Source of the DNA: Squalus acanthias
Lineage: Eukaryota
Assembly: GCA_030390025.1 (NCBI GenBank)
Contig: JASTWF010000244.1
Span: 124,001-188,000 of the forward strand
Length of the DNA stretch: 64,000 bases
Direction: 5' to 3'
Shown here: positions 1 to 64,000 of the stretch, piece after piece
Layout: every line of letters starts with the position of its first letter
Numbering within the stretch: the first letter of the stretch is position 1
The notes under the pieces: model-generated
The model's input: only the letters and a program-made list of their open reading frames with translations
Databases searched by the model: none
What the model was told of the DNA's origin: nothing
Made by a program: the position numbers and the translations under genes

Positions 1-3000
1 TATACGGGATGGTTGCCTGGACCAATATGTCGAGGAACCAACTAGAGATCAGGCCATCTTAGACTGGGTATTAAGTAATGAGAAATGATTAATTAGCAAT
101 CTTGTTGTGCGAGGCCCCTTCGGCAGGAGCGATCATAATATGATAGAATTCTTCATTAAGATGGAGAGTGAAGTAGTTGACTCAGAGACTAGGGTCCTGA
201 ATTTAAATAAAGGAAACTACGATGGTATGAGGCGCGAGTTGGCTAGGATGGATTGGGGAACATTACTTAAAGGGTTGACGGTGGATAGGCAATGGCAAAC
301 ATTTAAAGATCGCATGGATGAACTACAGAATTTGTTCATCCCTGTTTGGCATAAAAATAAAACAAAAAAGGTGACTCAACTGTGGCTAACAAGGGAAATT
401 AGGGATAGCATAAGATCCAAGGAGAGGACATATAAATTGGCCAGAAAAAGCAGCAAACCTGAGGATTGGGAGCAATTTAGGATTCAGCAAAGGAGGACAA
501 AGGGATTAATTAAGAGAGGGAAAATAGAGTATGAGAGTAAGCTTTCAGGGAACATAAAAACTGACTGTAAAAGCTTCTATAGATATGTAAAGAGAAAAAG
601 ATTGGTGAAGTCAAGCGTAGGTCCCTTGCAGTCAGAATCAGGGGAATTTATAATGGGGAACAAAGAAATGGCAGACCAATTAAATACATAGGGGGAGAAA
701 TTCAGTATCGCCCCATTTGGGGCTCAATTATCGGCTGGGCGCAAAGATTAGCGCCTGGCGCTAATTATCGCCTCCGACTGCAAACTTGGCTTTTATCACC
801 CCTGGATGTGATTGGAGCGCTAAATCAGGCGCTTCACAACTGTCTTAAGGCGCAAAGGCCGAGGAGCGAGGCGTTACCTCAGAGCACTGGTGATGCTCAT
901 GTGATGTCAGTCAGCAATAGAACACAGACACAATGGCGCCGGCCAGTTCTTAAAGGGAAGGGTTCATCTTGCTCTCCATCCACATCCTGCTCATTGCAGC
1001 CTTGAATCTCGGTCTGGAGAGACCTGTACATCAAATCTGCTGGAAAGAACAATGGAGAGTTCCCAGGGAAAGAGCTCAGAGTGCAGTCCCCACAGTCTCT
1101 TCTAAATCGATACAAGGAAGGGCAAATCAAAATGAACCTGCAAAGTGCTGCTTAGTACCCAAAACTCCTTCACACAGCGTTGAATCTCTCCAAGAAGTCT
1201 CTCTCTCTCTCTCTCTCTCTCAGAATGCGTGATGCAAAAATGTCACCAACAAAAAAAGGCAGGAAGCGGTCGCCTTTAAATAGCACTTCCCCAGTCCCTT
1301 CCTGACTGCAAAACGCTCCCCTCAACCTGTCGTTGATAGCGGCAGGTGGTAAGGCAGGGGGCGCCACTCAATATCCGGTCCGGGGCGCTACCGGAGCGTT
1401 GCGCACTCGACTGACGTCACGATCTGCCGGCGCAGGAGATCGTGGCGGTAGTGTTTAGCGCCACCGCAAAATGTCTAATTAATTTTGTGAGCGGCGCAAA
1501 CATCGCCACGCACGGGCGCTAGTTGCTTTGCGCCCCATTATTGCCCTCTTAAGGCGCTAATGGGAGGCGCAAACCAACTGAATTTTTCAACCATACTTTG
1601 GTTCTGTCTTCACAAAGGAGGACACAAATAACCTCCCAGAGATGTCGGGGAACACAGGGTATAATGAGAGGGAGGAACTGAATGAAATCAGTATTTGTCG
1701 GGAAATGGTGTTCGGGAAATTGATGGGATTGAAGCCGAAAAATCCCAAGGGCCTGATAATCTACATCCTAGGGTACTTAAGGAAGTGGCCCTAGAAATAT
1801 TAGATGCATTGCTGGTCATCTTCCAAAATTCTATACACTCTGGAGGGTAGTAAATGTAACCCCACTATTTAAAAAAGGTGGTAGAGAGAAAACGGGGAAT
1901 TATAGAGCGGTAAGCCTGACATCGGTAGTGGGGAAAATGCTAGAGTCCATTATAAAAGATGTAATAGCAGAGCACTGGGAAAACAGCGACAGGATCGGAC
2001 AAAGTCAACGTGGATTTACAAAAGGTAAATCATGCTTGACTAATCTACTGGAATTTTTTGAGGATGTGCCTGGTAGAATAGATAAGGGAGAACCAGTGGA
2101 TGTGGTGTATTTGGACTTTCAGAAGGCTTTCGATAAGGTCCCGCATAAGAGAATGGTGTGAAAAGTTAAAGCACATGGGATTGGGGGTAAGGTACTGACT
2201 TGGATAGAGAACTGGTTGGCAGACAGGAAGCAAAGTGTTGGAATAAACAGGTCTTTTTCTGAGTGGCAGGCAGTGACTAGTGGGGTACCGCAGGGATTGG
2301 TGCCAGGACCCCAGCTGTTCACAATATATATTAATGATCTAGACAAGGGAACTGGATGTAATATCTCCAAGTTTGCAGACGACCCAAAGCTGGGTGGGCG
2401 TGTGTGCTGTGAGGAGGATGCAGAGAAACTCCAGTATGATTTGGACAGGTTGGGTGATTGGGCAGATGCATGGCAGATGCAGTTTAATGTGGATAAATGC
2501 GAGGTTATCCACTTTGGTGGCGAAAACAGGAAGGCAGATTATTATCTGAACGGCAATAGATTGGGAAAAGGGGAAGTGCAATGAGACCTGGGTGTCCTTG
2601 TGCACCAGTCGCTGAAGGTAAGCATGCAGGTGCAGCAGGTGGTTAAGAAGGCAAATGGTATGTTGGCCTTCATAGCGAGAGGATTCGAGTACAGGAGCAA
2701 GGATATCTTGCTGCAGTTGTACAGGGCCTTGGTGAGACCACACCTTGAGTATTGTGTGCAGTTTTGGTCGCATTATCTGAGGAAGGATGTTCTTGCCATG
2801 GAGAGAGTGCAGCGAAGATTCACCAGACTGATACCTGGGATGGCAGGAATGACGTATGAGGAGAGATTGGGTCGATTAGGCTTATATTCGCTAGAGTTTA
2901 GAAGAATGAGAGGGGATCTCATTGAAACTTATAAAATTCTAACAGGACCTAGACAGACTAGATGCAGGAAGATTGTTCCCAATGGCGGGGGAGTCCAGAA

Positions 3001-3304
3001 CCAGGGGTCACAGTCTAAGGATAAGGGGTAAGCCATTTAGGACTGAGATGAGGAGGAATTTCTTCACCCAGAGAGTGGTGAACCTATGCAATTCTCTACC
3101 ACACAAAGCAGTTGAGGCCAATTCATTAAATATAATCAAGAAGGAGTTAGATATATTTCTTAAGGCTAAAGGGATCAAGGGATATGGGGAGAAAGCAGGG
3201 ACAGGGTACTGAATTTGGATGATCAGCCATGATCTCATTAAATGGCGGAACAGGTTCGAGGGGTCGAATGACCTACTCCTGCTCCTATCTTCTATGTTTC
3301 TATG
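1..3304 (+). mobile_element. CR1-clade LINE (ORF2 EN/RT, degenerate), split by a Harbinger MITE; 3' end abuts an Ig C1 exon
   Basis: ORF pieces with SDHNMI, YLDFQKAFDKVPH, GVPQG, KFADD, RPHLEYCVQFW; several stops/frameshifts; (TTCTATGT)n-type 3' tail ending ~3304; near-identical to the copy at 60845-63410. Confidence 0.95.
691..1592. mobile_element. Non-autonomous PIF/Harbinger element (MITE), family A
   Basis: TIRs GGGGGAGAAATT / AATTTTTCAACC; 3-bp TSD ATA (688-690, 1593-1595); the uninterrupted CR1 copy reads TAAATACATACTTTGG at ~61721. Confidence 0.9.
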
Positions 3305-3617
3305 CCTCTAATCAATGAATTTAAATCAAGACCATTAAGTATCATATGGCAACATATCAGAAAGAATAATGATTTGAAAGAAATCATTCAGCTGGATAAG
3401 GACAACAGAACAATCTTTCCTAGTGACAAAGGGAAGAAGTCCAAGTATCACCATTACATCAGTGAGATGGAGTGTGACGACAAAACATACAACATCACCA
3501 GTGTACTAGTTATTGTGCCAGATATACTGCAAGACCAGGACACGAAGTTCATCTGTAAGGTACAGCATGAGTGCACCAGCAGTGACCAACAGAGAGAAAT
3601 AATTCTGAAGATTAGAG
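3305..3617 (+). pseudogene. Ig C1-set exon, 5' part displaced by the CR1 insertion (multi-C1 Ig gene)
   Basis: LINEFKSRPLSIIW...YNITSVL...DQDTKFICKVQHEC; phase-1 donor G|GTATGT at 3617/3618. Confidence 0.85.
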
Positions 3618-4076
3618 GTATGTAATATTTTTGACAATACCTTGTATAGAACAATGGATTACATTTTGTTTCCAGATACTATTTCCTTGTTTTTTGCAAT
3701 GCAACAAAATTGCTAATTTTATTTGGCAAATCCTGTGAAGAGTGACGTGTCCTCAGCGCTGTATTTCTTTAATAACTCCTTGAAGACAGTGATACTTTTA
3801 CAAGGGAAGTATTCAGAATGCATCCAAGAATATTCAGAACTCAAATATTTAACAGGGAAACATATTAGCTGATTGCCCTGGAGTCACTGATTTAAATGAG
3901 CTTGTTGTGTAACTTTTTATTTTATACTTGGGTCTTATTTCAGAATTTTCAGAACACAATGGATTAAATGTTCTGGTCATTGTCTGTGGATAGGCAGAGA
4001 ATCTAGCCCACAATATCTCTAATCTGCTTGTGTTAAAGCCTGCGGTAATTTTCTTTTTGTGTGTTTTTTTTCCCAG

Positions 4077-5285
4077 CCACTCCAAAACTGGACCCGATAA
4101 AGTATGAAGCAGAAAAACTAGTTGCAGAAGAGGCTGTGACTTTAAACTGTCGAATACATTCTTTTTACCCCCGTGAAATCACAGTTACATGGCTCAAAAA
4201 TGCTAAGAAAATGACAAAAGAATCCGAAGATAGTGCGGCAACTCTGGGAAAGGATGGACTCTATGGGGTAGAAATTAGGTCGCGCCCCATTTGGGGCGCA
4301 AATATCGTCCGGACGCAAATATTAGCGCCTGGCGCTAATTATCGGCACTGACAGGAAACTTCACTTTTACCGCCCCGGGAGGTGAGTGGAGCGCTAAAGC
4401 AGGCGCTGCACACCTCTCTTAAGGCGCAAAGGGCGAGCAGTGAGGCGCTAACTCGGAGCGCTGGCGAAGCTCATGTAATGTCAGTCAGCAATGGAACACA
4501 CACACAATGGCACGGGCCAGTTCTTAAAGGGGATGGTTAATCTTGCTTTCCATCCACATCCTGTTCATTGCAGCCTTGAATCTCGGCCTGGAGAGACTTG
4601 CACATCAAATGTGCTGGAAAGAACAATGGAGAGCACCAGGCAAAGAGCTCAGAGTGCAGCTCCCACAGTCTCTGCTAAATCGATACAAGGAATGGCAAAT
4701 CAAAATGAACCTGCAAAGTGCTGCTCAGTACCCAAAACTCCTTCACACAACGTTGAATCTCTCCAGAAGTCTCTCCCTCTCTCTCTCAGAATGCGTAGTT
4801 CAAAAATGCCACCAACAATAAAAGACAGGAAGAGGCCCCCTTTAAATAGCGCCCCCCCCCAGCCCCACAGCGATTGATAGCGTTCCAGTCTTCTGGTCGT
4901 TGGAAGCGCCAGGCGGTAAGGCAGGGGGCGCCACTCAATTTCTGCTACGGGGCGCCACAAGGGCGTTGCACCATGGAATGACGTCACAATCTGCGCGCGC
5001 AGGTGGTCGCAGCGGTAAGTTTTAGCGCCGCCGCACAATCTCAAGTTAAGTTCTCGAGTGGCGCAAACATCGCTGCGCCCGGGCGTTAGCGGCTTTGCGC
5101 CCCATTAGCGCCCTCTTAAGGCGCTAACGGGAGGCGCAACCAAGTGAATTTTTACCCCTATGACTTGACAAGTAGTGTGAAGATTGTACCTACCAGAGCT
5201 GATGTTGAGAAGAAATACACATGCCAAGTAGAACATGAGAGCCTAATAGAGCCAGTGGAAGCTGACTGGGTACTCGGTAAACTGG
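4077..5285 (+). pseudogene. Ig C1-set exon split by MITE (4077-4264 + 5162-5285)
   Basis: Acceptor (T)nCCCAG at 4076; TLNCRIHSFYPREITVTWLKN...DGLY joins in frame to DLTSSVKIVPTRADVEKKYTCQVEHESL; donor G|GTAAGT at 5285/5286. Confidence 0.93.
4265..5158. mobile_element. Non-autonomous PIF/Harbinger element (MITE), family A
   Basis: TIRs GGGGTAGAAATT / AATTTTTACCCC; TSD TAT (4262-4264, 5159-5161); colinear with 691-1592. Confidence 0.92.
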
Positions 5286-5457
5286 GTAAGTAAACAAGTT
5301 CTGACCAGAGTATGACTATTACTATTTTTTCTGAACATTTCTTATAAAAACATGTAGGGCCATAACTTGCTGTGGCCCTTGTATGATTTAGGTTTTTAAA
5401 TTTTTAGCGTGGCAAGTTGCTGGAAGTGCGAGCTGATATCACAGCGAGGGAAACCAG

Positions 5458-6302
5458 GGCCTGAATTTTCCCAGTCCCAAGCGTGTGGGTTAGTGGCGGG
5501 TCAGCAGTAAAAATCGCCTAAATTTCCAGCGTGTCGGCAACCCGCCAACTTCCGCATTTAACTCGGGCACGTTTCCCAGCGTGCCACAGACCCGCTCGGC
5601 TGAGGCGGGTGACCTCATTGAAGTGCTTAAATGCTTGTTGAGAGACGCTTAAGAGGCTTTTTAACAGCAGCTTTTAGCTTTAACTTCTTGAGCACAGAAT
5701 TCACAGGAACCTCGCCTGTGAAGTGGAGGCGGAAGCTCAGTGGCCATTGTGCGAGTTCATGAAGTGACCGCATTGCACTCACCTTTCCTGACCTCATGAG
5801 ATCCTTGAATCTTTTCCGGCACTGGAGCCACATCCTCCTGACCACATCCCTGCTACTGACCTCCTCTGCAATCTCCAGCCATGTCCTTTTTGTGTCTTTG
5901 GTTGGTCGTTTGCGTCGATCGCCAGGGAAGAGGACCTCCCTGCGTGCTCTTACTGCCTGCACCAGAACTTCCAGCGAGGCATCGTTGAATCTCGGCGCGG
6001 CCCTCTGCCTCGTTTCCATGACCCACAATTTTATCACATTATTGAAACCTCTGGAAATCACGTTATGCACTCCTACATCAATCTTCAAATGTGATGTGTG
6101 CAAGGCTGCTTTAAATATCCGCGCTGGAAACGAGTGATCGATGACGTCATCAGACCCGCTCCATTTAATTGGGCCAGGAAACACGCATGACTGATTTAAT
6201 TGGAGCTATTCAGTAAACGTGCAGTGCAGAACGCGCTGTTCACATCTTTGGGCTACGCGGCCCGCACGCACACAACCCGACTCCAAGGTAAAGATTCCAG
6301 CC
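5458..6302 (-). mobile_element. Internally deleted Harbinger, family B, retaining exon 1 of the Myb/SANT gene
   Basis: ETRQRAAPRFNDASLEVLV...WLEIAEEV...WLQCRKRFKDL; TSD CAG; right end matches 43300-43518. Confidence 0.85.
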
Positions 6303-6703
6303 CAGGCATTTGGGACCTGAGTGAACAGGGAAAGCAAATGTGTATCTCCTTAACCAATCAGATTGAATGATAGTGAAATTAACAGTGCAAGGTCTGAGCA
6401 GGAAATGTAAATTAGAGTGGGTGAATTCAATGTCAATCAGGTACAGAAAGAGAGGGAAAGAAAGTTTGGATTAAGAGAGAAAAAAGAGACAAAATAAAAG
6501 ATTTTAAAAGAAATTACATTTAAAATTTTACATTTTTAAAATATCCAACAATTAATACCTGAAGGAATGAGACTCCACACTTGTAATAGTTATTTTTCAG
6601 TGCCAGTGAGGTTGATTGGCCGTAATTAACACGTTATTAAAAGAATCTCAGACAGCTTAAAAAGCTCCCTTTGTCTGAATCCATACTTAATTAAATATGC
6701 ACG

Positions 6704-6949
6704 TGTTGAGGCTGCCGCGAAACACGAATGGAGGCTGAATCCATATGTGGAAAACAAGAAGCTTTTATTCACTGCATGGCAAAACAAAATGTCTGAGACA
6801 GCTGCTCCCAGAATTCTCTGGGTAAACTCCCAGAATTCTCTGGGTAAAACCTGAGGCCCCACCCCCTTCTGCCTTAAAGGGAAGGGGCTGGAAATTTGTC
6901 CACAGACGGAAGAGTGGATTATGCCCGTTTTAGGTGGCGATCCGCCACA
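6704..6949 (-). repeat. 3' LTR of Gypsy element
   Basis: Direct repeat of 10823-11068; 3 substitutions seen; internal 22-bp tandem duplication CTCCCAGAATTCTCTGGGTAAA. Confidence 0.95.
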
Positions 6950-6969
6950 CAGCTCCCCCCAGAATCCGC

Positions 6970-9900
6970 TTAGGAGGTGTGGACGAGACGGTGCGGCGGT
7001 CTGATGGGCCGGCTGGAGCGGCTCTTGTAGGACGCCGGTGGACGTGGGACGGCCGGGCGTGGAGCAGCCGGGTGAACCGGCTTGAGGGCAGGTCGGCCGC
7101 GTGGAGGTGGACGAGCTACAGGGACCTGCTCCCCGGGCTCCGAGTGTGCTGGCTTGAGTCGGTCCACCGACACTTTTTCGGTCCTGTCGCCCACTTGCAG
7201 GGTGAAAAATTTGTCCCCAGCCTGTAGCACCTTGTAGGGCCTTTCGTACGGGGGTTGAAGGGGTCCGCGGTGGGTGTCGTGCCGGACGAAAACAAACCGT
7301 GCCTGGTGCAGGCTTAGTGGGACGTGTGAGGTGGATTCGCCGTGTCGGGCAATGGGCACCGGGGCGAACTGCAGCGCCGGTGAGGCGAAGTTGTGGCGTT
7401 GCTGGTCGGCTGACCAGGGTGTCGTGGCGGTGGGCAGGAACTCGCCGGGTACGCGCAGTGGCTGACCGTACACAAGCTCTGCTGCCGATGCGTGGAGGTC
7501 TTCTTTAACCGCGGTGCGCAGGCCAAGGAGGACCCACGGAAGTCGGTCAGTCCAGGCGCCATCTTGGAGGCTGGCTCGAAGAGATGCCTTCAAGGATCTG
7601 TGGAAACGCTCACACAGTCCGTTGGCTTGGGGGTGGTACGCTGTGGTGCGGTGGATGGTCACCCGGAGATTGCGTGCGACGGCGGTCCAGAGTTCAGAGG
7701 TAAATTGCGGACCTCTGTCCGACGTCATGTCGGAGGGGACGCCGAACCGTGCGACCCAGGTGCTGACGAAGGCTCTGGCGATGTCGGCGGTGGTGGTAGA
7801 GGTAAGTGGAATTGCCTCAGGCCAGCGTGTGGTGCGGTCAATGATGGTCAGCAAGTGCGTGTGGCCTTGCGACGGTGGCAGGGGCCCGACGATGTCCACA
7901 TGGATGTGGTCGAATCTCCGCGAGGGGACGGTAAACTCCTCGAGGGGTGCTTTCGTGTGTTGCTGTACCTTGGCACGTTGGCAGGATAGGCAGGAGTTGG
8001 CCCAAGTACGCACATCCTTGCGAAGGCCGCGCCAGACAAAGCGGTTGCCTACCAACTTGATGGATGCGCGGGCGCCGGGGTGGGAGAGGTTGTGGAGAAT
8101 GTCGAATATCCGGCGGCGCCAGGACGCTGGGACGACGGGCCGAGGTTGACATAGGGATATGTCGCACTTGACCGTGACTGCGGTCGGGCCACAGGCGACG
8201 TCGGCCAGGCGTAGCCCTGGTAGGTTGGTGGGTGCGGAGAGCAGATCCGGGTCGGTGATCTGGTCTGCTGCAAGTTGAGCGTAGTCGACTGCTAGGTGTG
8301 CGGCGTGGATGGCGGGGCGGGAGAGGCAGTCGGCTACCACATTGTCTCGGCCGGAGACGTGTTGGATGTCCGTGGTGAACTCGGACACTGCCGCGAGCTG
8401 GCGCTGCTGCCTGGCGGACCAGGGGTCGGTTGTCTTTGCCATTGTGAATGTCAGGGGCTTGTGGTCGACAAACGCAGTGAAGGGGTGGCCCTCAAGCAAA
8501 AACCGGAAATGGCGGACCGCCAGGAACAGCGCGAGGAGCTCGCGGTCGAAGGTGCTGTACTTGACCTCCGGGGGGCGTAGTTGGCGGCTGAAGAAGGCAA
8601 GTGGTTGCCAGGCGCCGTCGACCCACTGCTCATACACGGCGCCGACCGCGTGGTCGGAGGCGTCTGTGGTGAGCGCTACCCTGGCATTGGGCCGTGGGTG
8701 CGCGAGCAGGGTGGCGTTGGCGAGCACGGTCTTGGTGGAATCTAAGGCGGCGGACGCATCTGTCGTCCATTCGACCGCCATCTTGCCGCTCCTGCCCCGG
8801 AGGGCTTCATACAGGGGCCTCATGAGGGACGCCGCTTTGGGGATGAAGCGGTTATAGAAATTCACCATCCCGAGGAACTCCTGGAGGCCTTTGATGGTGG
8901 TGCGGCGGGGAAATTGTTGGACGGCCTGCACCTTGGTGGGCAGGGGAATGGCCCCAGCATGGGTGATGTGGTGGCCGAGGAAGTCGATCTTGTCCAGGCC
9001 GAACTGGCATTTGGCTGGGCTAAGGATGAGCCCGTGGTCGCTGAGGCGCCCGAACAGGATGCGAAGGTGTTCGAGGTGTTCCTGCTTGGAGGAACTGGCT
9101 ACCAGGATGTCGTCCAGGTAGACGAACAGGAACTTCAGGTCCCGAAGGACCGAGTCCATGAGCCGTTGGAATGCCTGGGCCGCGTTTTTGAGGCCGAAGG
9201 GCATCCGCAGGAACTCAAACAGGCCGAAGGGGGTGATTACGGCCGTCTTGGGGACGTCCGCGGGGTGGACGGGGACTTGGTGGTAGCCGCACACCAGGTC
9301 GACCTTGGAAAAGACTGAGCGGCCGGCCAGTCTAGCCGAGAAGTCCTGAATGTGCGGCACGGGGTACCGATCAGGGGTGGTGGCGTCATTGAGGCGGCGG
9401 TAATCCCCGCAGGGACGCCAACCCCCGCCTGGTTTGGGGGCGATGTGGAGTGGGGAGGCCCAGGGACTGTTGGAGCAGCGGATGATGCCGAGCTGTTCCA
9501 TGGTGGCAAACTCGGTCCGCGCGATCTCCAGTTTGGCCGGGTCCAGCCTGCGGGCGTGGGCATACACTGGGGGGCCTGTGGTGGGGATGAAGTGTTCCAC
9601 CCCGTGTTTGGCGGCCTCCGCGGAGAAGGTCGGATTGGTAAGGGCCGGGAATTCGGCCAGGAGTGCCGAGTAGTCATCCGTGGCCCGGGCGTGGCACTGT
9701 GACGCCATGTCGGCGGGTTGACGGGGGGCCATGGCGCCCAGGATGGGGGACATGGTGTTCATGTCCACGAGGCGGTGACGAGGGATGTCTACCAGTAAGC
9801 CGTGGGCACACAGGAAATCTGCGCCGATGAGGGGGGAGAGCATCTTGGCAGTGATGAACTCCCATCGGTAGCGGTGACCAGCGAGGTCGAGGGTGACTGT

Positions 9901-10782
9901 CCGGGTGCCATACGTCTGGATTTCCGAGCCGTTAGCAGCAGCCGGCGCCGGTCCTCATTCGCCCTTTTGGATGTCGAGGGAGGAGGCTGGGATGATGCTG
10001 TGCTGAGCCCCAGTGTCGCACAGGAACCGCCGGCCGGTTTTGTCATCCGTGACGAACAGCAGGGAGCCCGCGTGGCCCACGGCCATCGCGGGGGCTGGAA
10101 CGGGGTCGGACTTGAAAGAGCAAGGAGGTGTGCACCGTTGTGCCCTGGCGCCGACCCGTGCGTGGTAGTAACAGTGGCCCGGGTTAGTGGGGCGTGAAGG
10201 CCCCGGGGGCCTGGTGACAGGCCCTTGTGGCCGCGGGCTGGATGGTGAGGGGTGCGCCCAGGCATTGGCTGCCAGGTCCGGAGTGACGTCGCGGCTGGAG
10301 TGAGCGGACAGCAGCTTGTCGGCCTCATCGGCCAGGGCTTCCAGGTTCGTGAGGCCGGAAGCCACGATCGCTGGGCGGATGCTGAGAGGGAGCTGGCGGA
10401 TGAATAGCGTGCGGAAGAGGGATCCGGGTGGGCTCTCATCGGTGAGGGAGAGCATGTGGGAGAGGAGGTCTGACGGTGAGGCATCACCGAGGCCTGGAAG
10501 GTCGAGGAGGTGGCAATTTCGCTGATATGCCGAGGCCGTAAATTTTTTAAGGAGCGCTGTTCTGAGATGTGCGTACTTGCCTTCCTCTGGTGGGTTCTGC
10601 AGCGTTGTCCAAACCTTGGAAACTGCGACGCTACTGAGTGATGTGACGAGATAGTCGTACTTCGTCCCATCTGTGGTGATATTTCACAGCCGGAAGCGAG
10701 ATTCAGCTTGGAGAAACCAGGCTTCGGGCTGGTTTTCCCAAAACTCCGGCAGTTTCACGGAAACTGCGTTCGTGTCCACCAT
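6970..10782 (-). CDS. Gypsy gag-pol single frame with two in-frame TGA stops (10684-10686, 9955-9957); open RT-RH-IN segment 9843-6970
   Basis: MVDTNAVSVKLPEFW...; FLCDTGA protease; RT YLDD; RNase H TDASD; integrase HVDIVGP/SDRGPQF/GLCERFH. Confidence 0.9.
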
Positions 10783-10807
10783 TGCAGTGCTCGGAATACG
10801 TTCTGAG

Positions 10808-10821
10808 CGTCGGGGTCACCA
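10808..10821 (-). promoter_or_regulatory. Primer-binding site complementary to tRNA-Trp
   Basis: - strand TGGTGACCCCGACG right after the 5' LTR. Confidence 0.85.
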
Positions 10822-10822
10822 A

Positions 10823-11068
10823 TGTTGAGGCTGCCGCGAAACACGAATGGAGGCTGAATCCATATGTGGAAAACAAGAAGCTTTTATTCACTGCATGGCA
10901 AAACAAAATGTCTGAGAAAGCTGCTCCCAGAATTCTCTGGGTAAACTCCCAGAATTCTCTGGGTAAAACCTGAAGCCCCGCCCCCTTCTGCCTTAAAGGG
11001 AAGGGGCTGGAAATTTGTCCACAGACGGAAGAGTGGATTATGCCCGTTTTAGGTGGCGATCCGCCACA
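10823..11068 (-). repeat. 5' LTR of Gypsy element
   Basis: Direct repeat of 6704-6949, followed on the - strand by the PBS. Confidence 0.95.
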
Positions 11069-11834
11069 CACGGACCTTAAATGGCTCCAAGATGGAGTCC
11101 TTGCGTCACTTCAGATCAGCCCTAACTTTCTGTGGCGGCTTTAGTTCGGATCTACTGTGCAAATACAGCAACTTCACGCCATTCAGTGCATTTCAATGGT
11201 GAGGCAAACGGCGAGATGCCCTTTTTGCGAAGCTAAAGGCAACTCAGACAGCAACTTTTGGATTTTTGAGTTTAACCACGCCTCTACCCCTCACCTGAAG
11301 TTGCTGTACAGTTTGAGCATAAATAACAGTGAGCGCCGTTAGACTCATTGTTATTTTGAGAGCAAAATCTGGGGCATAATCGACTGGTGTGTTTAATTGT
11401 TCTCGTTTGATTTAAAAATGCATAACCTGTAATTATTTGATAATTGGGAAATATTAATAATCTGAAACTAATATACAGATTTAAGTTGGTGACTAACAAT
11501 TCTACTGGGCAGTTTCAGCATTGGCAAAGGTCTGTTCGTGAAGGCCCATGACCTGGAGTGATCCGATTGGAGACAAGGGGAATAAAGAAACCAAAATAAA
11601 TTAAATGGAAATCTTGCTCTCACCCAAAAATAAAATTACCTTGGTTGTTTTTTCGATATTTTAGCAAACTGAGAAAATCCGAGTTGATCTTTTTGCAGTC
11701 TGTGAAAAATAATCCATTTGGGGTACTTTTTTGGTCTGGAAGAGCAAACAATAAAATAAAAGCCCAGAATAACAGAACAATAATACGAAAGAAAAACCTT
11801 GCATTTATAGAGTTCATTTCCTATCCTATTTAAG

Positions 11835-12200
11835 TCCATAAACACTTGATTGCTAATGAATTAGTTTTGAAGTGTAATCTTTGTTGTTTTGTAGGCAATT
11901 TGTGCAGAGCAGTGTCCCACAAACAGCAATGTGATGAGTGACCAGTTAATCTGTTTTTTGGGGGATTTTGTTTTGAGGGCGAAATGTTGGCCAGGACATC
12001 AGGAGAAGTCCTTGCTCTTTGGATAAGTGCAATGAGATCTTTTATGTCCACCTGAAGAGGTAGACAGGGCCCCTTTCTGTACTGCAGTGCTCTTTCAGTA
12101 TTGTACTGACCTGTCGGCGTAAATTATTTCCTCAAGTCCTGGAATGCCGCGAGAACCCAGACCACCTTCAGTGGCAAGAGCAGTACTGCTGAACCAAGCT
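11835..12200 (-). mobile_element. tRNA-derived Deu-domain SINE (SacSINE1-like), degenerate
   Basis: Similar to copies at 15330-15770 and 44800-45215. Confidence 0.55.
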
Positions 12201-12696
12201 GAATAGAGTTGGAAAGGATTGTTTGCAGCTCCCTATTAGCTCATTGGGAAAATGCACCACCTGATTCGGGCCTGAGCCATAGAGAACTGTAAGGTTGCAA
12301 GTCTGATCTCTGAGTTAGCTGATCTCCGCTAGGTGGAGTGGTACAATCTGCCTCGGCCCCCATGGACTAGCGAAGTGAAATGTCACTGTCAAATGACCCC
12401 TGTTGCAAAGTGTGTGTGGATGCTTATTCGGTGAATGCAGGATCAGGCTTGAATAGCCTCCCAGTACTCAGTTCAGTCTCACATGTGATATCTGGCCACT
12501 TCCAAGAGATACTGGAGCATTGACTGCAGCCATGGCCTGTACCACAGTGTGAGGGAAGAAAGAGGGACAGAGAAAAAGGATAGTTATTCAAGAAATCAAT
12601 GTTTAAAATTTATCAAGGCATACTAGACATTTTTTTTTAAATTGTGGTCTTCTCTCAGTTACACAATCTCTAACACTGTTTCTTTTGTACGAGTAG

Positions 12697-12863
12697 TGTC
12701 GATGCCAAAGGTAACAGAAATTAAAACCGATCCACTTTACCCAGAGGTGGGAAAACCTGTAACACTGTCCTGCAAAGCAAAGGGCTTCTTTCCAGAAGAT
12801 CATCAAATATTCTGGTTCAAAGCATTTCAGAAAACTAATGATGGAATTGAAACAGAAGAAAGT
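12697..12863 (+). pseudogene. Ig C1-set exon, 5' half only
   Basis: Acceptor TAG at 12696, phase 1; MPKVTEIKTDPLYPEVGKPVTLSCKAKGFFPEDHQIFWFK; Ig similarity stops after ~ETEES and no F-strand Cys or donor was found. Confidence 0.8.
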
Positions 12864-13593
12864 GTTCATTTTGAGAGGTTCCTGTTTTGTGCATGTTTGG
12901 TTGTAATCCATAGTGGTGTCAGTGTGGTATTTCAGATTATTTGCAGAATAACCCAGATATTCCTATTTAGGTGGGCAGCTGTGGGGTGCTGTATGCCAGC
13001 TGCCAGCCCACTTCTGTGCTCGCTCAATATTCTGACTTTATTTCTGGCTGTTGGCAGAATCACCCACCCTAAATGGGCTGTTAAAATGAGGCTGTGATGA
13101 CATCATGGATTCCATTCTCCATCATTACTACCTTATTTACACTCAGTATACAATGGCTGTCTAGGGTTGCTAGATGCTGGGGAAAAGACAAACATGCATT
13201 TAAAGAGCCAAATACAGATATAATTAAAGCTTTGAAAAATCCTTATTTCTTCAGTGATTTTGGATTTTTTTTGCTGTTCCTAATGTTTTACTCTCTGCCA
13301 TTTGCCGATTGTCGCCATCTTCAGGCAAGACACAACGTAGGTTTCTAATTGGGGATTCCCCTCTACCTTTTGCTTCCTAGAAGAGGATAGTAGGGAATCC
13401 AGGTTGGTGAGGCTGCACTGGAAACCCATGAAATGTACCCACCAGTACCCCACACCTGACGATAGAGGAAGAGGTGACCCTATCTGCATTTGCCCAAGGA
13501 AGAGAAGGAGCAGCAGCAGAGGCCTGTAGATAAAGTAGAGCATAACCTTTTCCTATCTGCAGCACATATTTGTGCTATATTGGGACAATAGCA

Positions 13594-13806
13594 GGGGGGG
13601 AAATTCGGTCCCTTTGGGACGCTAACTTCCCCGCGCCTGAAATTCACTGGTAGCGTCCCAAGAGGGAGGCGGGCCACTACTGGAAGCGCTCCCCCTCCCT
13701 CTTGGGGCGGTACCAGTGAATATCGCGTGCGACATGCTGTGATACTGCAGGCCTTCCTCCACTTAGGGCGCTAACGGGAGGCGCAAAGCAACCGAATTTT
13801 GCCCCC
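13594..13806. mobile_element. Short (~210 bp) Harbinger family-A-type MITE
   Basis: TIRs GGGGGGGAAATT / AATTTTGCCCCC; subterminal GGCGCTAACGGGAGGCGCAA shared with family A; no clear TSD. Confidence 0.7.
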
Positions 13807-13979
13807 TGGGTGTTCTCTTGACTACCACATCTGGTCATTGCACAACCAATCTTGTGCACATTTTTTCCCCCACACCCTTTCCCATGCGCATCAACTCACA
13901 CAGTTTTCATTCATGCCATCTGAACAAATCCATTTTCAAATATTGCTATGGATAATGTGTGCACACACAACTTTAATGC

Positions 13980-15320
13980 AACCATAGTTTTAATGAAACC
14001 CTGTATAGTGTGTGTGCATGCACCTTTTCCTAGGTGCCATCTGAGTGGTAAGCTGGTGTGAGGTGGCTGGATGCTGTGTCAGCATAAACCTCAGGGCCTG
14101 CAGTGGCTGTTTCCACAAGGCAGGAAAGTTCTGAGATGGACCTGCTGTCGGCTGCACCTCTTCTGCTGCTGCCTGAGAAATTTGGCCCTGCTTCCTTTCT
14201 CTCATGTGCAGGCATCTGAGGGGCTGGCAGGAGGGCATGCACGTGCTGCTGCCCATAGAGACCATCATCTGAATGCATTCCTGCCATGCTGCCAGCACTG
14301 GGCTGTGGCTCTGCATGGTCACTGGTCTGCAGGAAAGCAGATCTATCGGTAATAGTGAGATTAATAAAGATCCATGAGATATCCCTTCCCAATCTGACGC
14401 CTCAGACCTCTATGGCAGCAGTCTGAGCAACCATGAAAGAATTTCTGACTGCTCTCATGGCCTCTGTCATGTGGTCCCCTCTTCAAATGTTCCAAAGTGG
14501 ACTGCAATGCACACAGTGGACTCCTCCAGTTTACCCACCATCTGCTGCACAGTTTCTGACACTGTCTTTGGCGTCTGCACACACGTTTAATACCCTGCAA
14601 GCATCCTTTTAAAAGCAAGACTCCTGAGATCATGATCACTTGGCTTTTGAGCCAAGGGGCAATGTATCCTGATCCTTCAGTCAGTAACTTCTTCCGCCTC
14701 ACATTCCACGTTGGCTCCTCCAGCTCACTTGTGATCTGTGCATTACCCAATGCACTCCCCTTACACTCAGTCTGTAATGGATGTCTCTGGCCTGGTGTTT
14801 GGGAGGGAGTGAATGAGTGTTAGTTTGTACTCTGCAGTGCTGGCAGGGCTGGATGCACTGGAGTCTGGCTCACCATATTCAGAAACACCTAGATAAAGAA
14901 AAGAGAAAGACAGCTTAGAATAGAATCTCAGGAATGGAGCTCGTATCAATTTCAGTAGAAAGAGTAATAGGGTTGTCATGATATGCTTCACTGAGGATTA
15001 ATGCAAGGTGCAATAGGAAGAGTAGAATGTCATGACTGTTGGCAAATACCCTTCTACCTTGCTGTCTCTATCACCCAAAGTACTTCACTCAGAATCTGCA
15101 TGGCTTCCTCCTCATTGAAGTGGTAAGTTTCAGGTTTGGGGGGCCGACCAACTTTGCTGTTTTCTCCTGATTATAAGGCTTGTCTGCTTGAAGAAATCAT
15201 GCAAAAAGTGAGAATGACCTCTTGCTCTTATGATATGCAGTAAACCCCACGGATCAGAATGCAGACAATAATGGGTATGCTGACAGCTGCAAGGCAGGCA
15301 GTATAAAAGGCACTGCACTG
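13980..15320 (-). mobile_element. Highly degenerate Harbinger SANT-gene remnant
   Basis: Patchy similarity to 40808-42100 (e.g. AGPSQ, terminal PRKR). Confidence 0.4.
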
Positions 15321-15329
15321 CTTCAAATG

Positions 15330-15770
15330 TCAGCTTGGATCAGTGGTAGCACACTCGCCTCAAAGTCTGAAGATTGTGGGTTCAAGATCCATAAGAGCTT
15401 GAATACATAATCCAGGCTGGCACTTTAATGCAGTACCGAGGGAGTGACGCATTGTCAGAGATGCTGTCTTTCAGTTAAGATGCTAACCGAGGTCCCATCA
15501 GATGTAAAAGATCCCATAGCATTATTCAGAAAGAAAGAAAGCTGTTCTCTCAGTGTCTTGGTTACATTGGCCCTCAACTAACACAAGCAAAACCTATGAA
15601 CTGGTCATGTATCTCATTTAATGTTTGCGGTGCCTTGTAATACACAATTGGCTACCACATTTGCCTACTAAAGAACAGAGACTGCACTTGAAAAGTAATT
15701 CATTGACTGAAATGCTTTGAGATATGCTGAGGATGTGAATGGCATTATATAAATGCAAGCTCTTTCTTTT
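15330..15770 (+). mobile_element. tRNA-derived Deu-domain SINE (SacSINE1-like)
   Basis: A/B boxes (TGGATCAGTGG; GGTTCAAGATCC), TGCAGTACCGAGGGAG core, ATATAAATGCAAG(CTTT)n tail. Confidence 0.7.
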
Positions 15771-15799
15771 CTTTCTCATGGATATTGATGGTAGGGCTG

Positions 15800-16940
15800 T
15801 ATTCCCTGGAATTTAGAAGATTAAGGGGTGATTTGATTGACGTTTTCAAAATATTAAGGGGAACGGATCGGGTAGATAAAGAGAAACTATTTCCGCTGAT
15901 TGGGGAATCTAAAAATTAGAGAAGGCCTTTCAGGAGTGAAGTTAGGAAACACTTCTCCACGCAAAGGGTGGTAGAAGTTTGGAACTCTCTTCTGCAAATG
16001 GCAGTTGATGCTCGATTAGTTGTTCATTTTAAATCTGAGATTAATAGATTTTTGCTAAGCAAAGGTATTAAGGGATATGGGGCAAAGGCGGGTATATGGA
16101 GTTTGGTCACAGATCAACCATGATCACATTGATGCGGAGATGCCGGTGTTGGACTGGGGTGGACAAAAATGAGAAGTCGCACAACACCAGGTTATAGTCC
16201 AACAGTTTTATTTAAAATTACGAGCTTTCGGAGCTCCGCTCCTTCTTCAGCCAAAGGTACAGTGAGGGAATCTATTACACAGTATATATACACAGAGAAC
16301 AATTTGTCTGCAGAGATACAATCTGTTAGGGAGGCATTACATCAAAGACACATCAGAGTACAGCTAAGACAATGAGGTGGGTCACAGGGGGTCCAACGTG
16401 TCAAATGCTGCCGTCTGCAGTTAAGCTTTTAACTTTTTTGTTTTTTTTTAAAAACTGGAAAGACAGACAACGATGTTGAGTCACGTTCTGTAGCATGACA
16501 TGAACCCGAGATCCCTATTGAGGCCGTCCTCATGGGTGCAGAACTTGGCTATCAGTTTCTGCTCGATGATTTTGCGTTGTCGTGTGTCTCGAAGGCTGCC
16601 TTGGAGAACGCTAACCCGCAGATCCGAGGCTGAATGTCTTTGACTGCTGAAGTGTTCCCCGACTGGGAGGTAACAATCCTGCCTGGCGATTGTTGCGCGG
16701 TGTCCATTCATACGTTGTCTCAGTGTCTGCATGGTCTCGCCGATGTACCATGCCGCGGTGCATTCTTTCCTGCAACGTATGAGGTAGACAATGTTGGCCA
16801 AGTCACATGAGTCTGTACCATGAACCTGGTGGGTAGTGTCCTCATGTGTGATGATGGTATCTGTGTTGATGATCAGGCATGTCTTGCAGAGGCGGAAGAG
16901 GTTCAAGGGGCTAAATGGCCTACTCCTGTTGCTATGTTCC
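15800..16940 (+). mobile_element. CR1 3' fragment interrupted by a Penelope element
   Basis: RRLRGDLI-type coding 3' end at 15810-16130; tail GGCCTACTCCTG resumes at ~16900. Confidence 0.7.
16135..16890 (-). mobile_element. Penelope-like element fragment: GIY-YIG endonuclease plus pseudo-LTR
   Basis: NIVYLIRCRKECTAAWYIGETMQTLRQRMNGHR...EDGLN (16481-16890); hammerhead core at 16225-16250. Confidence 0.85.
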
Positions 16941-17797
16941 TGTGGTAAGCTATTCAAGCACTTTAATACAGTTAGTGGAAGTGGTTATAAAGTGGTAGGC
17001 AAGCTTAGTAGAGTGCATTCTTGGTTGGCTTCTTGTAATTTACCTGACCTGGTGAGGTTATTAAACATTTTGTGGCATGGAGTGACTGTGTGCTAAATAG
17101 TTGAATTCATACTGACTATCCTACTTATCTCCTGCGGCTCTCCTTTTGTCTGTTCCCAAAGGGTGCTATTTCATAATTGCTTCAAATTAAATAAATATCT
17201 CTGATATGGGAAACATTTTTTGCACATGTGAATAAATTATACCAACAATATAACTTTTAACATGTTACGGTATAGCACTGTAATCTCACACTTTCATAGT
17301 TCCCAATTTGAAAATCAGATTTCCTTCTTATATCTGCATTCTTGAATATTTTACTTGCTTCCCTCTTCCATGGCCCCATCTCCATTATCCCTTCAACTCC
17401 AAGTCTACTTAACAAAGACAGGAGGACGGCTGGATGGTCTCTGGCTGCTGCTATGGTCGTTGTTATTTTATTGGCCTCTCTTCTTGGACATCAAGGCTCG
17501 TGATTTATGGAGGGGCATCCGTGACTCTTGGTAAAATGGCTCATCTCTCGTAGAACATTCCATGGCCATGGTGTACGTCTCCTGATTCCAAGCTTTTAGG
17601 CAGGAAATGCCAATTGATGGCTGCGTTCAAACGTCAGAAGTAGCTGGGATTAAAATGAAATGTCCCTAGTCTAGGAGTGCAGAGCTCTGCTGCTGGAACC
17701 AGCAACTTTCCTTGTACTTTCATTATAAAATCAAATCTATATTTTTGTCACATTATTAAGGGTTTTGCATTATTTATTTCAAATTTTATTCCAACAG

Positions 17798-18102
17798 ATA
17801 ATTTTCAGGAGGTGTCGAGGATAACTTGCCAAACAGAAAATTCTAAAGCTGACCAACCCGTAACTCTTTCCTGCACTGTTAAAGGAGTCACCATAGCAGA
17901 TGCTCACATCACCTGGTACAGAGAAGTTTACCCCATTGAAGATATGAGCTGTATTGAAAACACAGCATTTGCAACTGGTAAAGGTTTCACCACTGCACTA
18001 ACGTATATACCAAGGCAAGAAGATGACAATCGTCTGTTCCAAATTGATGTTATCACTGAGATGGACCCAGTTAGCAGATATTTCAACCTGAAATTAAGTT
18101 GA
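17798..18102 (+). CDS. Probable last Ig-domain exon of the multi-C1 gene (divergent; F-strand Cys absent), ending in TGA
   Basis: Acceptor CCAACAG at 17797, phase 1; PVTLSCTVKG...AHITWYR...FTTALTYIPRQEDDNRLF...FNLKLS*. Confidence 0.75.
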
Positions 18103-29151: not shown

Positions 29152-29241
29152 ATAAGTGAGGAGATTGGAGACTGATCACCTCCAATAGAGGTCGAGTCCA
29201 AGAAGGAGAGGGCCGAATGGAAAACAGCTGTAACAATAAAA

Positions 29242-30950: not shown

Positions 30951-30999
30951 GAATCAGGGCAAGTCCACGAACCCAAATCCTTTTAAAAAGGATGAACAG

Positions 31000-33900: not shown

Positions 33901-34560
33901 AAATTTTTACCAGATGGGGTTTTCCAAAAAGGATAGAAAGTGATAATGGATCACATTTTATGGCAGAAGTGATGCAACATCTGTGCCGCCTCATCGGTGT
34001 GGAGCAATATTTCCACATCCCCTACCACCCACAGTCTATGGGATGGTGGAACGCTTGGATCGCACTCTGAAAGCAGGGCTGAAAAAAGCTGTCATGCAGG
34101 GAAGTGATGATCTGGTTAAGACCAGTACTGATTGGGTTCTGGCTTTGCCTGGTATTCTGATGGCCACACCAGTGAGCTCTACCGGCTGATTTGAGCTGAT
34201 GACAGGCCGACAGATGCAAATTGCACATCCAAGTGAGGTTCCACTCCCCATTGCTACTCGCCAGATCCATAACCAGTTCCTCCAGAACCTCCAACAATCT
34301 TTACAGTCCACTCTGCTCCATGTAGTGGAGAAGATGGGTGCTACCCATTTTAACACCACCTGGGACGACCACCCCACCTATTGCATTAACTACTTGATTG
34401 CGAGCAAGTCATGCTTAAAACTTTTTTAAAAAGGGGGGCCTGGGAGACTAATTGGGAAGGTCTGTATGAAATCATGGACAAATTGGGAGAAACAAACCTT
34501 AAATTGGCCATCCAGAAACGAGATCAGTGTAAACTGTACAAGAAAAGGAGGTCAGATAAC
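31000..34560 (+). pseudogene. ERV pro-pol (degenerate): protease, RT, tether, RNase H, integrase
   Basis: FLVDMGAS; LPQGF, YVDD (32017-32028); tether PDPSQPFIMEV; RNase H VYVDGS/SAQ/KVKAH/NNVADQLA; IN LQIDSTGPLP/ESDNGSHF/GMVER. Confidence 0.88.
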
Positions 34561-35230: not shown

Positions 35231-35258
35231 AAAAGCTTTTCATTGTAATTATACAGAT

Positions 35259-37250: not shown

Positions 37251-37284
37251 ATTCATGTTGTTCTCCATACCAGAAGCCATTTCC

Positions 37285-63852: not shown

Positions 63853-64000
63853 AGGAAGGTGACCTAATTGTGTCGATGAATTCAAGAACCGTGAAAGCCA
63901 TTGTAAATGCAGATGTTGTTCTTGAATGCCAAGTGTCTGGTTACACGACTAAAGAAATTGATCTTAAAAACGTGGGAGTTCAGTGGTTCTTCCAAAAATT
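63853..64000 (+). CDS. NCR3LG1: Exon 2 (IgV domain, partial) of NCR3LG1/B7-H6-like gene
   Basis: Acceptor TTGCAG at 63852; EEGDLIVSMNSRTVKAIVNADVVLECQVSGYTTKEIDLKNVGVQWFFQK resembles the B7-H6 V-domain start (EGDL.V.M...N..V...C...G..WF). Confidence 0.8.

Follow-up and report, generated by a model that had tools for sequence, protein, structure and literature searches.

Transposon-damaged exons in Squalus acanthias, almost certainly derived from the C1-set tail of a B7-H6 (NCR3LG1) gene

Textbook accounts place C1-set domains outside the cell or in the lumen, as parts of antigen receptors, MHC molecules and a few relatives. In tapasin and SIRP, the transmembrane segment (TM) follows the last C1 domain. 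Human B7-H6 (NCR3LG1) is an activating ligand for killer cells. It is described as a type I protein with phase-1 Ig exons, as found here, and a tail bearing Gag homology together with ITIM, SH2 and SH3 motifs (PMC2715080). Structural work gives Thr127-Pro128 and Lys130 as the residues that contact NKp30 and describes the ectodomain as a monomer (PMC3135353). Shark-type B7-H6 carries C1 domains instead of the Gag-like tail, while human B7-H6 has no C1 tail; a siamang B7-H6 record matches Gag_MA at E 1.7e-5, below the cut-off. Another shark IgSF protein, UrIg2, shares the long C1 array. It is described as a VJ unit and nine C1 domains followed by a TM, so that its array precedes the TM and is hence extracellular (PMC12227049). 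The intact shark B7-H6 (NCR3LG1) layout is leader-V-C1-TM-(C1)x7, and a nurse shark record already named B7H6 (P0136, 1092 aa) has it.

The window, a stretch of 64,000 nucleotides of the Squalus acanthias contig JASTWF010000244.1, contains two B7-H6 paralogues and transposons only. Its features are given below, with c2 standing for tail domain 2 and so on.

1..3304, plus strand: CR1-type LINE, 3' part, running past the window start; 92-96% identical to the copy at 61047-63411; tail repeat ends at 3304
691..1587, plus strand: Harbinger-derived MITE within the LINE; target duplication ATA; 84% to 4265-5153 and 80% to the Harbinger end at 38432-38947
3305..3617, plus strand: c2 exon remnant (tail domain 2, exon 1); 78/102 identical to P0005 from residue 455
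4077..4264, plus strand: c3 exon, 5' part (tail domain 3, exon 2); intact acceptor; 42/62 to P0005; Pfam C1-set 42.4 bits
4265..5158, plus strand: non-autonomous Harbinger MITE in the c3 exon, 894 bp; TIRs match at 11/12 bases; target duplication TAT
5159..5285, plus strand: c3 exon, 3' part; 35/40 to P0005; intact phase-1 donor at 5286
6704..11068, minus strand: Ty3/gypsy-type LTR retrotransposon in the c3-c4 intron; RT, RNase H, integrase; target duplication CACG
12697..12863, plus strand: c4 exon, 5' half (tail domain 4, exon 3); 45/54 to P0005; profile positions 1-57 of 107
17798..18102, plus strand: c7 terminal exon (tail domain 7, exon 4), intact; 74/100 to P0001
47198..47273, plus strand: leader exon of the downstream gene B; phase-1 donor; translation resembles the P0124 and P0128 leaders
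63853..64000, plus strand: start of the gene B V exon, cut by the window end; 86% to P0124

The four coding segments on the plus strand are C1-type. Their Pfam C1-set scores are 18.5 bits (exon 1), 42.4 and 19.9 (the two parts of exon 2), 24.3 (exon 3) and 18.1 (exon 4); two of the five pieces pass the cut-off of 21 bits and the others lie at 18.1-19.9, with whole orthologues reaching 200-243 bits. Profiles of orthologue domains gave E values far beyond chance (8e-51, 2e-29 and 4e-20, 3e-28 and 1e-53 among 2,947 six-frame segments). Exons 1 to 4 are collinear with residues 455-556, 557-660, 661-716 and 1002-1102 of P0005 and correspond to tail domains 2, 3, 4 and 7 of shark B7-H6 proteins at 69-88% identity. 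In a tree of 171 domains, built by a quick search over 107 columns and without rows for Ig, MHC or tapasin, every window exon was placed with its own tail-domain class, the c2 remnant included. All nine matches of exon 4 are shark proteins of 755-1170 aa, eight of them with the V-C1-TM-(C1)n layout. Judged from these sequence comparisons, the exons almost certainly are tail domains 2, 3, 4 and 7 of a shark B7-H6 (NCR3LG1) gene. The closest orthologues, at 61-75%, are Pristiophorus P0005, Heptranchias XP_067849968.1, Scyliorhinus canicula LOC119971843 and Rhincodon LOC109934976. Such shark paralogue-A proteins are full-length uncharacterised models with no function given in their records. The tail domains of nurse shark B7H6 are the same and follow one another in the same way (58.8% identity to the five window pieces), and its terminal exon is likewise anchorless. 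Unlike the window copy, in which three exons are broken and c5, c6 and the linker are missing, the nurse shark protein is intact with seven tail domains.

The exons have next to no probability of encoding domains of Ig heavy-chain constant regions, UrIg, SIRP, MHC or tapasin. They are C1-like, and the 5' half of c3 matches SIRP-alpha (E 4e-13), MHC class I, Ig chains (E 9e-10) and UrIg2, the last weakly (E 1.4e-7). However, among solved chains c2 reaches E 0.044 (IgM) and c7 E 8e-4, while B7-H6 tail domains give E 1e-38 to 1e-42. IgM, IgW and IgNAR constant regions were rejected on these values and on the identity to B7-H6 tails; in these sequence comparisons the exons stand far closer to the latter than to the Ig constant regions with which, by the first-pass annotation, a grouping would have refuted its reading. 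Tapasin and SIRP were rejected on the stop at 18100-18102, after which the TM of their layout was not seen up to 47197. The AlphaFold model of c7 is a beta-sandwich (pLDDT 94). Foldseek found MHC class II entries in all matches listed (TM-score about 0.72), and VIA-align tied CD22, SIRP-gamma, MHC II and titin at Z 11-12 (rmsd 2.1-2.8, 89-100 aligned residues), which does not separate the subtype.

The terminal exon ends in TGA at the same position as in most shark orthologues and, as first noted, has no anchor. A TM-like exon was sought on the plus strand of 18103-47197 and none was found, the two candidates being the interior of a Harbinger ORF and the leader of the next gene. Splicing to a downstream TM exon is likewise unsupported, as all 48 homologues with domain 7 end at most 15 residues after it. 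Because the exons match the tail of leader-V-C1-TM-(C1)x7 proteins, the TM exon of this copy would sit upstream, outside the window, together with the leader, V and C1 exons. A separate gene of tandem C1 domains without any TM beside B7-H6 is very improbable. The window does hold no TM exon for this gene, and a few amphibian poly-C1 models lack a TM by the threshold used (P0014, P0016). Against it stand the collinear identity to the tail of V-C1-TM proteins and the apparent sharing of a contig by paralogues A and B in five species, with adjacent locus numbers in one, like the two genes here. Gene B is, from its two exons in the window, a tandem paralogue whose orthologues bear the same kind of C1 tail; P0124, for instance, is a 978-aa V-C1-TM-(C1)x6 protein. 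The exons had been placed next to B7-H6: a downstream B7-H6 gene does exist, but it is a paralogue, and the exons belong to a B7-H6 gene too.

The layout is widespread, being shared by chimaera, rays, reedfish, coelacanth, lungfish, amphibians and turtles, with a domain number between 3 and 10. A TM followed by at least three C1 domains was found in 60 of 69 matches, to a query built from such proteins. Frog, axolotl and turtle models named NCR3LG1 belong to the family, and most of its proteins are labelled 'uncharacterized' or 'hemicentin-1-like'. The earlier description of C1-type, poorly characterised, NCR3LG1-linked domains was borne out. Between cartilaginous and bony vertebrates, identity is 34-37% for c2-c5 and 37% for V and C1, which makes tail and ectodomain equally conserved. 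In the AlphaFold model of P0005, a helix at 256-270 accompanies nine Ig folds (mean pLDDT 83.8), and a leader with a single TM after C1 is seen in the orthologues (8/9 exon 4 matches, 60/69 matches, the P0005 helix). In orthologues P0005 and P0124, the V and C1 ectodomain is nearest to human B7-H6, the best solved match (E 7e-31 and 2e-30), and B7-H3 is weaker (E 3e-15 and 2e-17); the ectodomain of the window copy lies beyond the window. At the NKp30-contact positions, Thr-Pro is present in 26 of 32 V domains and the FG-loop Thr-Pro-x-Lys, shared with human B7-H6, in 21 of 32. The latter include the chimaera sequence and 10/10 sequences of paralogue A from sharks and rays; in paralogue B the Lys is missing. 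The C1 tail of B7-H6 was undescribed in the literature covered by the search, which did not extend to the specialist papers likeliest to mention it. The array of C1 domains after the TM is already in databases.

The first-pass annotation had described four consecutive phase-1 exons of one domain each. The four C1-type segments stand and the surviving splice sites are phase 1 (donors at 3618 and 5286; acceptors before 4077, 12697 and 17798), but the terminal exon alone is whole, and the breakage of the other three was overlooked. Exon 1 has no usable acceptor and misses about 25 codons because the LINE 3' end abuts it at 3304/3305; the start of the c2 exon would be upstream of the LINE. The c2 remnant covers profile positions 26-127 of 127 and lacks strand A, most of strand B and the first Cys. 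In exon 2, the reading frame meets a stop 29 codons into the MITE, and the first 3 bases of the 3' part are the duplicated target. In exon 3, homology ends at about 12863 and a consensus donor is absent. The remainder of c4, c5, c6 and the linker, located between exons 3 and 4 in most orthologues, were not found on either strand of the window. Two peculiarities described earlier, the long C-D segment of exon 1 and the missing second (F-strand) Cys of exon 4, are both present.

The frame damage (LINE, MITE stop, truncated c4) lowers the standing of this copy as a functional gene, not its descent from the B7-H6 family. Its full-length product has very probably been lost, and the copy is likely a recent pseudogene or a truncated allele. 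The damage is read as recent because of the MITE target duplications, the remaining 360 codons with zero stops or frameshifts, and the closeness to paralogue-A and chimaera proteins: to all nine of these the window copy is at least as similar as intact P0005, and it beats P0005 for one of four more distant proteins. This reading covers the c2-c7 region, the exons that precede it in this copy (leader, V, C1, TM and c1) being outside the window. The LTRs of the Ty3/gypsy-type element differ at 3 of 248 bases. Absence of c5-c6 alone is no lesion; several ray and bamboo shark models also lack them. Expression of this copy as a short-tailed B7-H6, with an intact upstream ectodomain and TM and with the damaged exons skipped or the protein ending within the MITE, appears unlikely. 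In its favour, every surviving junction is of phase 1, so that skipping would preserve the frame; databases contain models with a smaller number of tail domains (P0007, P0019, P0166, P0172, P0180); the terminal exon is undamaged and its acceptor is good; and splicing at 13 GT-AG pairs could excise the MITE in frame. These pairs have weak sites, though, three neighbouring exons carry three separate lesions, and the intact acceptor and donor of c3 mean that the MITE and its stop are probably included.

The tail is quite probably cytoplasmic. Both canonical Cys are kept in 63 of 64 outer domains versus 78 of 196 in the tail, where five of seven domains (c1, c4, c5, c6, c7) mostly lack the pair. 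N-glycan sequons number 75 observed versus 55 expected outside and 131 versus 128, the chance level, in the tail, and K/R are richer after the TM than before it in 20 of 31 cases (9 ties, 2 reversed). All these counts come from related sequences and are non-independent. Total Cys per 100 residues is 3.0 in the tail versus 2.4, so the tail is not Cys-poor. The canonical B-F disulphide pair is retained in c2 (31/33 sequences) and c3 (32/33); a reducing cytosol requires neither this pair nor such a Cys content, and both count against a cytoplasmic tail. It is quite unlikely that the array acts outside the cell or in the ER lumen, either as secreted V-(C1)n by TM-exon skipping or by a topology other than type I. 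To our knowledge, C1-set domains are otherwise extracellular or luminal, and RefSeq isoform models without the TM exon exist in toad and turtle (P0048, P0173), which favour such a location along with the c2 and c3 pairs, but the TM precedes the tail in most matches, the named nurse shark record included, and the Cys and sequon patterns speak against it. The exons had been proposed to encode a soluble or intracellular family. Of this, the intracellular part probably holds; a separate soluble family does not, the exons being the B7-H6 tail itself.

With a cytoplasmic tail, a mechanism can be outlined. The leader and single TM would make a type I membrane protein, and the outer V-C1 pair would bind shark NKp30 through the FG loop, by homology with human B7-H6. 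Seven predicted beta-sandwiches, five mostly without the usual disulphide, would form the tail. Tail domain 2 is predicted to form a homotypic pair between two chains by way of the ABED sheet, much like antibody CH3. In antibodies this sheet is the pairing face of CH1/CL and CH3 pairs (PMC11926128); the predicted c2-c2 pair shares the face but would be cytosolic and on a type I membrane ligand. The ligand would thus be held dimeric from inside the cell, while the other tail domains would form a rod-like scaffold for docking. An acidic Tyr motif ahead of domain 7 in shark paralogue A could recruit SH2 proteins; the pattern occurs in 7 of 33 linkers, essentially of this paralogue only.

This mechanism is tentative and is given somewhat less than an even chance. 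The two-copy model of P0005 residues 429-767 scored 0.44 versus 0.00 for the best of three controls (pLDDT 85, contact agreement at least 97%); the interface is symmetric and confined to the uncharged ABED face of domain 2. The dimer mark was reached by 21/30 paired and 0/23 single microbial chains and by 17/29 paired (animals 7/16) and 0/30 single eukaryotic chains; among eukaryotic pairs without an older relative, 1/7 passed. The alignment was unused in the model, and the pass may reflect memory of solved CH3-type pairs. Conservation of the interface versus the rest of domain 2 was 0.56 vs 0.51 (p 0.12) and 0.62 vs 0.54 (p 0.04), and the same face is more conserved on domain 3. The monomeric state of the human ectodomain also weighs against the dimer. 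A cytoplasmic but monomeric tail, serving as a spacer or in trafficking control (the ligand kept inside until stress, or tied to the cortex), is a serious possibility, short of an even chance. Tandem intracellular Ig domains serve as rods in titin-type proteins, and titin is among the tied c7 matches; the variable domain number and the weak interface conservation also fit. The symmetric modelled interface argues against a monomer, and each domain position keeps its own identity from sharks to tetrapods, which suggests specific partners. The monomeric spacer shares identity and topology with the dimer scaffold and differs in the domain 2 pairing alone. Overall, the reading of the locus as the transposon-hit tail of a cytoplasmic-C1 B7-H6 gene, likely a recent pseudogene or truncated allele, with the dimer mechanism, is considered fairly probable.

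The locus itself, as a damaged copy of a known gene, is of little import; the family layout that it exposes is more important. The labels 'uncharacterized' and 'hemicentin-1-like' imply that B7-H6 gene counts in cold-blooded vertebrates may be off. If true, a seven-domain cytoplasmic C1 array, found also in turtles and, from sharks to amphibians, no less conserved than the ectodomain, would broaden the picture of the C1-set. It is possible, if doubtful, that ancestral B7-H6 had seven distinct cytosolic C1-set domains, kept from sharks to turtles, with an intracellular CH3-like dimer. C1-set domains would then have served intracellular signalling since early jawed vertebrates, and mammals would have swapped the module for a retroviral Gag domain; the idea would be new in print. 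The family offers a direct test of the function of the B7-H6 tail, including the reason for the Gag-like domain of mammals.

Four C1-type segments lie on the forward strand of the window, and the splice sites still present in them are of phase 1. They correspond to the following C1-set domains (c1 to c7) of the tail found after the transmembrane segment (TM) in shark B7-H6 (NCR3LG1) proteins, in which a linker precedes c7.

3305-3617, forward strand: exon 1, part of c2
4077-5285, forward strand: exon 2, c3, interrupted
12697-12863, forward strand: exon 3, part of c4
17798-18102, forward strand: exon 4, c7, with a TGA at its end and without the second Cys

The first-pass annotation had read these exons as a separate, anchorless poly-C1 gene adjoining B7-H6, and both its observation and its interpretation were borne out in part. 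All four exons are present, but only the last is whole, the other three being broken. A TM exon is indeed absent between the last C1 exon and the next gene, as the two candidates from a scan of 18103-47197 were not TM exons. The separate gene did not hold up. Searching with exon 4 returned nine shark proteins at 63-74% identity, eight of which have the layout leader-V-C1-TM-(C1)n, n being seven in most of them; the remaining one, an incomplete draft model, lacks the TM. The window pieces are collinear with tail domains 2, 3, 4 and 7 of P0005, an intact Pristiophorus orthologue (69-88% identity), and a quick tree built from 171 domains groups each piece with its own class (SH-aLRT 96, 95 and 100 for the sets containing c2, c3 and c7; c4 has no starred set). 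As for the ectodomain of the orthologue, the best solved chain is human B7-H6 (E 7e-31), and B7-H3 is matched at 3e-15. A nurse shark record of 1092 aa carries the name B7H6, and NCR3LG1 is the name given to several models from frogs, axolotl and turtles. The ESM Atlas gave nothing beyond generic Ig clusters. The collinear tail matches, the B7-H6-like ectodomain and the NCR3LG1 names therefore assign the exons to B7-H6 itself, with the missing TM upstream. Judged from its sequence, the locus adds a damaged member to the known B7-H6 family.

The DNA is vertebrate, free of Ns and rich in transposons, and the nearest relatives of its immune exons are shark proteins, which makes a shark its very likely source. 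No Rfam match was obtained. The mobile elements are as follows.

6704-11068, reverse strand: young Ty3/gypsy-type LTR retrotransposon (994-codon pol frame; LTRs differing at 3 of 248 bases; CACG target duplication)
about 34900-38955: Harbinger-like element (DDE_Tnp_4 at 37285-38472, reverse strand; Myb/SANT at 35190-35600, forward strand)
5627-6205, 39475-42700 and 56541-56957: other Harbinger pieces with Myb/SANT or DDE frames
about 29200-34000, forward strand: decayed, fragmented retrovirus-like element that retains a zinc knuckle, RT, two RNase H-like stretches and an integrase zinc-binding domain, interrupted by frameshifts and stop codons
49354-52134 (+), 23970-27150, 60850-63411, 54372-56529 (-): LINE copies, that at 49354 with an endonuclease-RT frame of 926 codons
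16481-16984, reverse strand: GIY-YIG fragment in the intron lacking c5-c6 (E 1e-3, below the cut-off), likely of a Penelope-type element

Exon 1 has lost its acceptor, strand A and first Cys, and the 3' end of a LINE abuts it at 3304/3305. None of the 12 in-frame AG sites nearby is a usable acceptor (11 are closed by stops, and one is internal and weak). An insertion of 894 bp, bounded by inverted ends and a TAT target duplication, interrupts exon 2, and the frame stops 29 codons inside it. This element is akin to the Harbinger sequence at about 38.4-39.0 kb; the Harbinger-like element is the likely source family, since the MITEs at 691-1587 and 4265-5158 resemble its right end. In exon 3, homology ends at about 12863, and a consensus donor is absent. 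A c4 intron shared with other species was considered, as the draft model P0004 is interrupted close to that position. It was rejected because just 3 of 217 domain matches are partial and the same species has a whole chromosome-level model. The missing half of c4, c5, c6 and the linker were recovered neither by tblastn with five orthologues nor by searching 2,947 six-frame segments with profiles, and c5, c6 and the linker are absent from both strands of the window. A scan for linker mini-exons gave six candidates, none of them linker-like (acidic or Tyr-bearing). A phase-1 GT lies at 18098, near the stop of exon 4; the exon is nevertheless read as terminal because all homologues possessing domain 7 end there (48/48).

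The 360 codons left contain neither stops nor frameshifts. Compared with P0005, the window copy is equally close or closer to all nine paralogue-A (its own type) or chimaera proteins, and at least as close to one of four more distant proteins. Both features suggest that the damage is likely recent. Less probably, the copy could still be expressed as a truncated ligand, for which the phase of the exons and the occurrence of short-tailed models speak; we consider such expression unlikely. Loss of c5-c6 alone is seen in several rays, and half a c4 solely in one draft model.

A tandem neighbour, paralogue B (gene B), begins downstream.

47198-47273, forward strand: leader exon of gene B
63853 to the window end at 64000, forward strand: start of the V exon of gene B, 16.6 kb from the leader exon

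All seven matches to paralogue B, obtained with a query that included 13 intronic codons, come from sharks or rays and are 742-978 aa long; in the five examined, three to six C1 domains come after a TM. The partial V exon alone gave no Pfam or useful PDB match, with queries that partly included these codons. An ORF at 60393-60782 was considered as a V exon and rejected. Models of A and B apparently share a contig in Heptranchias, Scyliorhinus canicula, Pristis, Carcharodon and Cetorhinus, and have adjacent LOC numbers in Scyliorhinus canicula.

In the family as a whole, a TM is followed by at least three C1 domains in 60 of 69 matches to a query built from such proteins; in four the tail is short or missing, and five have no TM by the threshold used. 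The tail is present in named records from a chimaera, sharks, rays, reedfish, coelacanth, lungfish, caecilians, salamanders, frogs and turtles. None from a teleost, squamate, crocodilian, bird or mammal is among the matches listed for which a name was looked up (20 of 92), the searches having covered a limited number of candidates (8,000 in one of them). The sole mammal, a siamang, has a Gag_MA match instead of the C1 tail (E 1.7e-5, below the cut-off), in agreement with the Gag-like tail of human B7-H6 described in excerpts of PMC2715080. The layout varies: the V-C1 ectodomain is doubled in two skate proteins (P0018, P0137), c3-c4 or c4 is repeated in two ray proteins (P0133, P0134), and an eighth tail domain occurs in coelacanth, reedfish and lungfish (P0028, P0037, P0090). 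A second, more divergent frog set (P0014, P0016, P0023, P0046 and others; 1,000-2,200 aa) has many C1-like repeats, which often also follow a TM, and possibly represents expanded amphibian B7-H6-like genes. Ranid frog members of the B7-H6 family, P0150, P0152 and P0155-P0158, are labelled 'hemicentin-1-like', likely a mis-annotation.

A leader and a single TM place the C-terminus in the cytoplasm, and the tail is very probably cytoplasmic. Among 33 aligned proteins, whose relatedness makes the counts non-independent, both Cys are retained in 63/64 outer domains and 78/196 tail domains. The pair is kept in c2 (31/33) and c3 (32/33), and is found in 1/32 c1, 0/30 c4, 7/25 c5, 2/23 c6 and 5/20 c7 domains; counted overall, the tail is no poorer in Cys. 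Sequons number 75 outside (55 expected) and 131 in the tail (128 expected). K/R is greater after the TM in 20 of 31 proteins and equal in nine, two rows without a TM being excluded. Two isoform models, P0048 and P0173, skip the TM exon, and their V-(C1)n product would be secreted. The AlphaFold model of P0005 (pLDDT 83.8, pTM 0.41) shows nine Ig folds, with a helix spanning 256-270. The Cys-less c7 of the window gives a confident sandwich (pLDDT 94), with MHC class II chains as Foldseek matches and C1, C2 and I-set domains tied in VIA-align.

Outside the cell, by analogy, the V domain would bind NKp30. Human B7-H6 contacts NKp30 through Thr127, Pro128 and Lys130 (excerpts of PMC3135353); the positions aligned to Thr127-Pro128 are Thr-Pro in 26 of 32 proteins, and Thr-Pro-x-Lys occurs in 21 of 32. 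Paralogue B has no equivalent of Lys130, the residue that makes the salt bridge with NKp30 in humans. Tail domains 2-5 are 34-37% identical between cartilaginous and bony species, and the ectodomain 37%; being conserved to the same degree, the tail is under selection. Two copies of P0005 429-767 were predicted to pair (score 0.44, best control 0.00; contact agreement at least 97%, pLDDT 85), and the interface is the CH3-type face of domain 2, formed by strands A, B, D and E. The score mark was reached by 21/30 paired and 0/23 single microbial chains, and by 17/29 paired (animals 7/16; 1/7 without an older relative) and 0/30 single eukaryotic chains. Since these passes include just 1/7 eukaryotic pairs without an older relative, the dimer pass may reflect model memory. 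The interface face of domain 2 is uncharged, but its conservation exceeds that of the remaining domain only slightly (p 0.12 and 0.04); the same face is better conserved in domain 3. The reading preferred here, tentatively, is a dimerising scaffold that would cluster the ligand from inside the cell; a monomeric spacer or a control of trafficking has a similar probability. Ahead of domain 7, an acidic Tyr motif, found by pattern in 7/33 linkers, is essentially confined to shark paralogue A, and the linker bearing it is absent from the window copy.

The literature searched yielded no account of B7-H6 with a C1 tail; it included parts of PMC3135353, PMC2715080, PMC12227049, PMC11599192, PMC10751288, PMC11926128 and PMC11544004; Flajnik 2012 and Ohta and Flajnik 2015, outside this scope, may describe it with their supplements. 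The terms B7H6 and NKp30 were not found in the portion covered of the elephant shark genome supplement (PMC3964593). The naming of the nurse shark record suggests that specialists have seen the sequence. Shark NCR3 genes are reportedly treated in a 2021 Immunogenetics paper. For the B7-H6 family, a likely cytoplasmic array of C1 domains is both surprising and testable.
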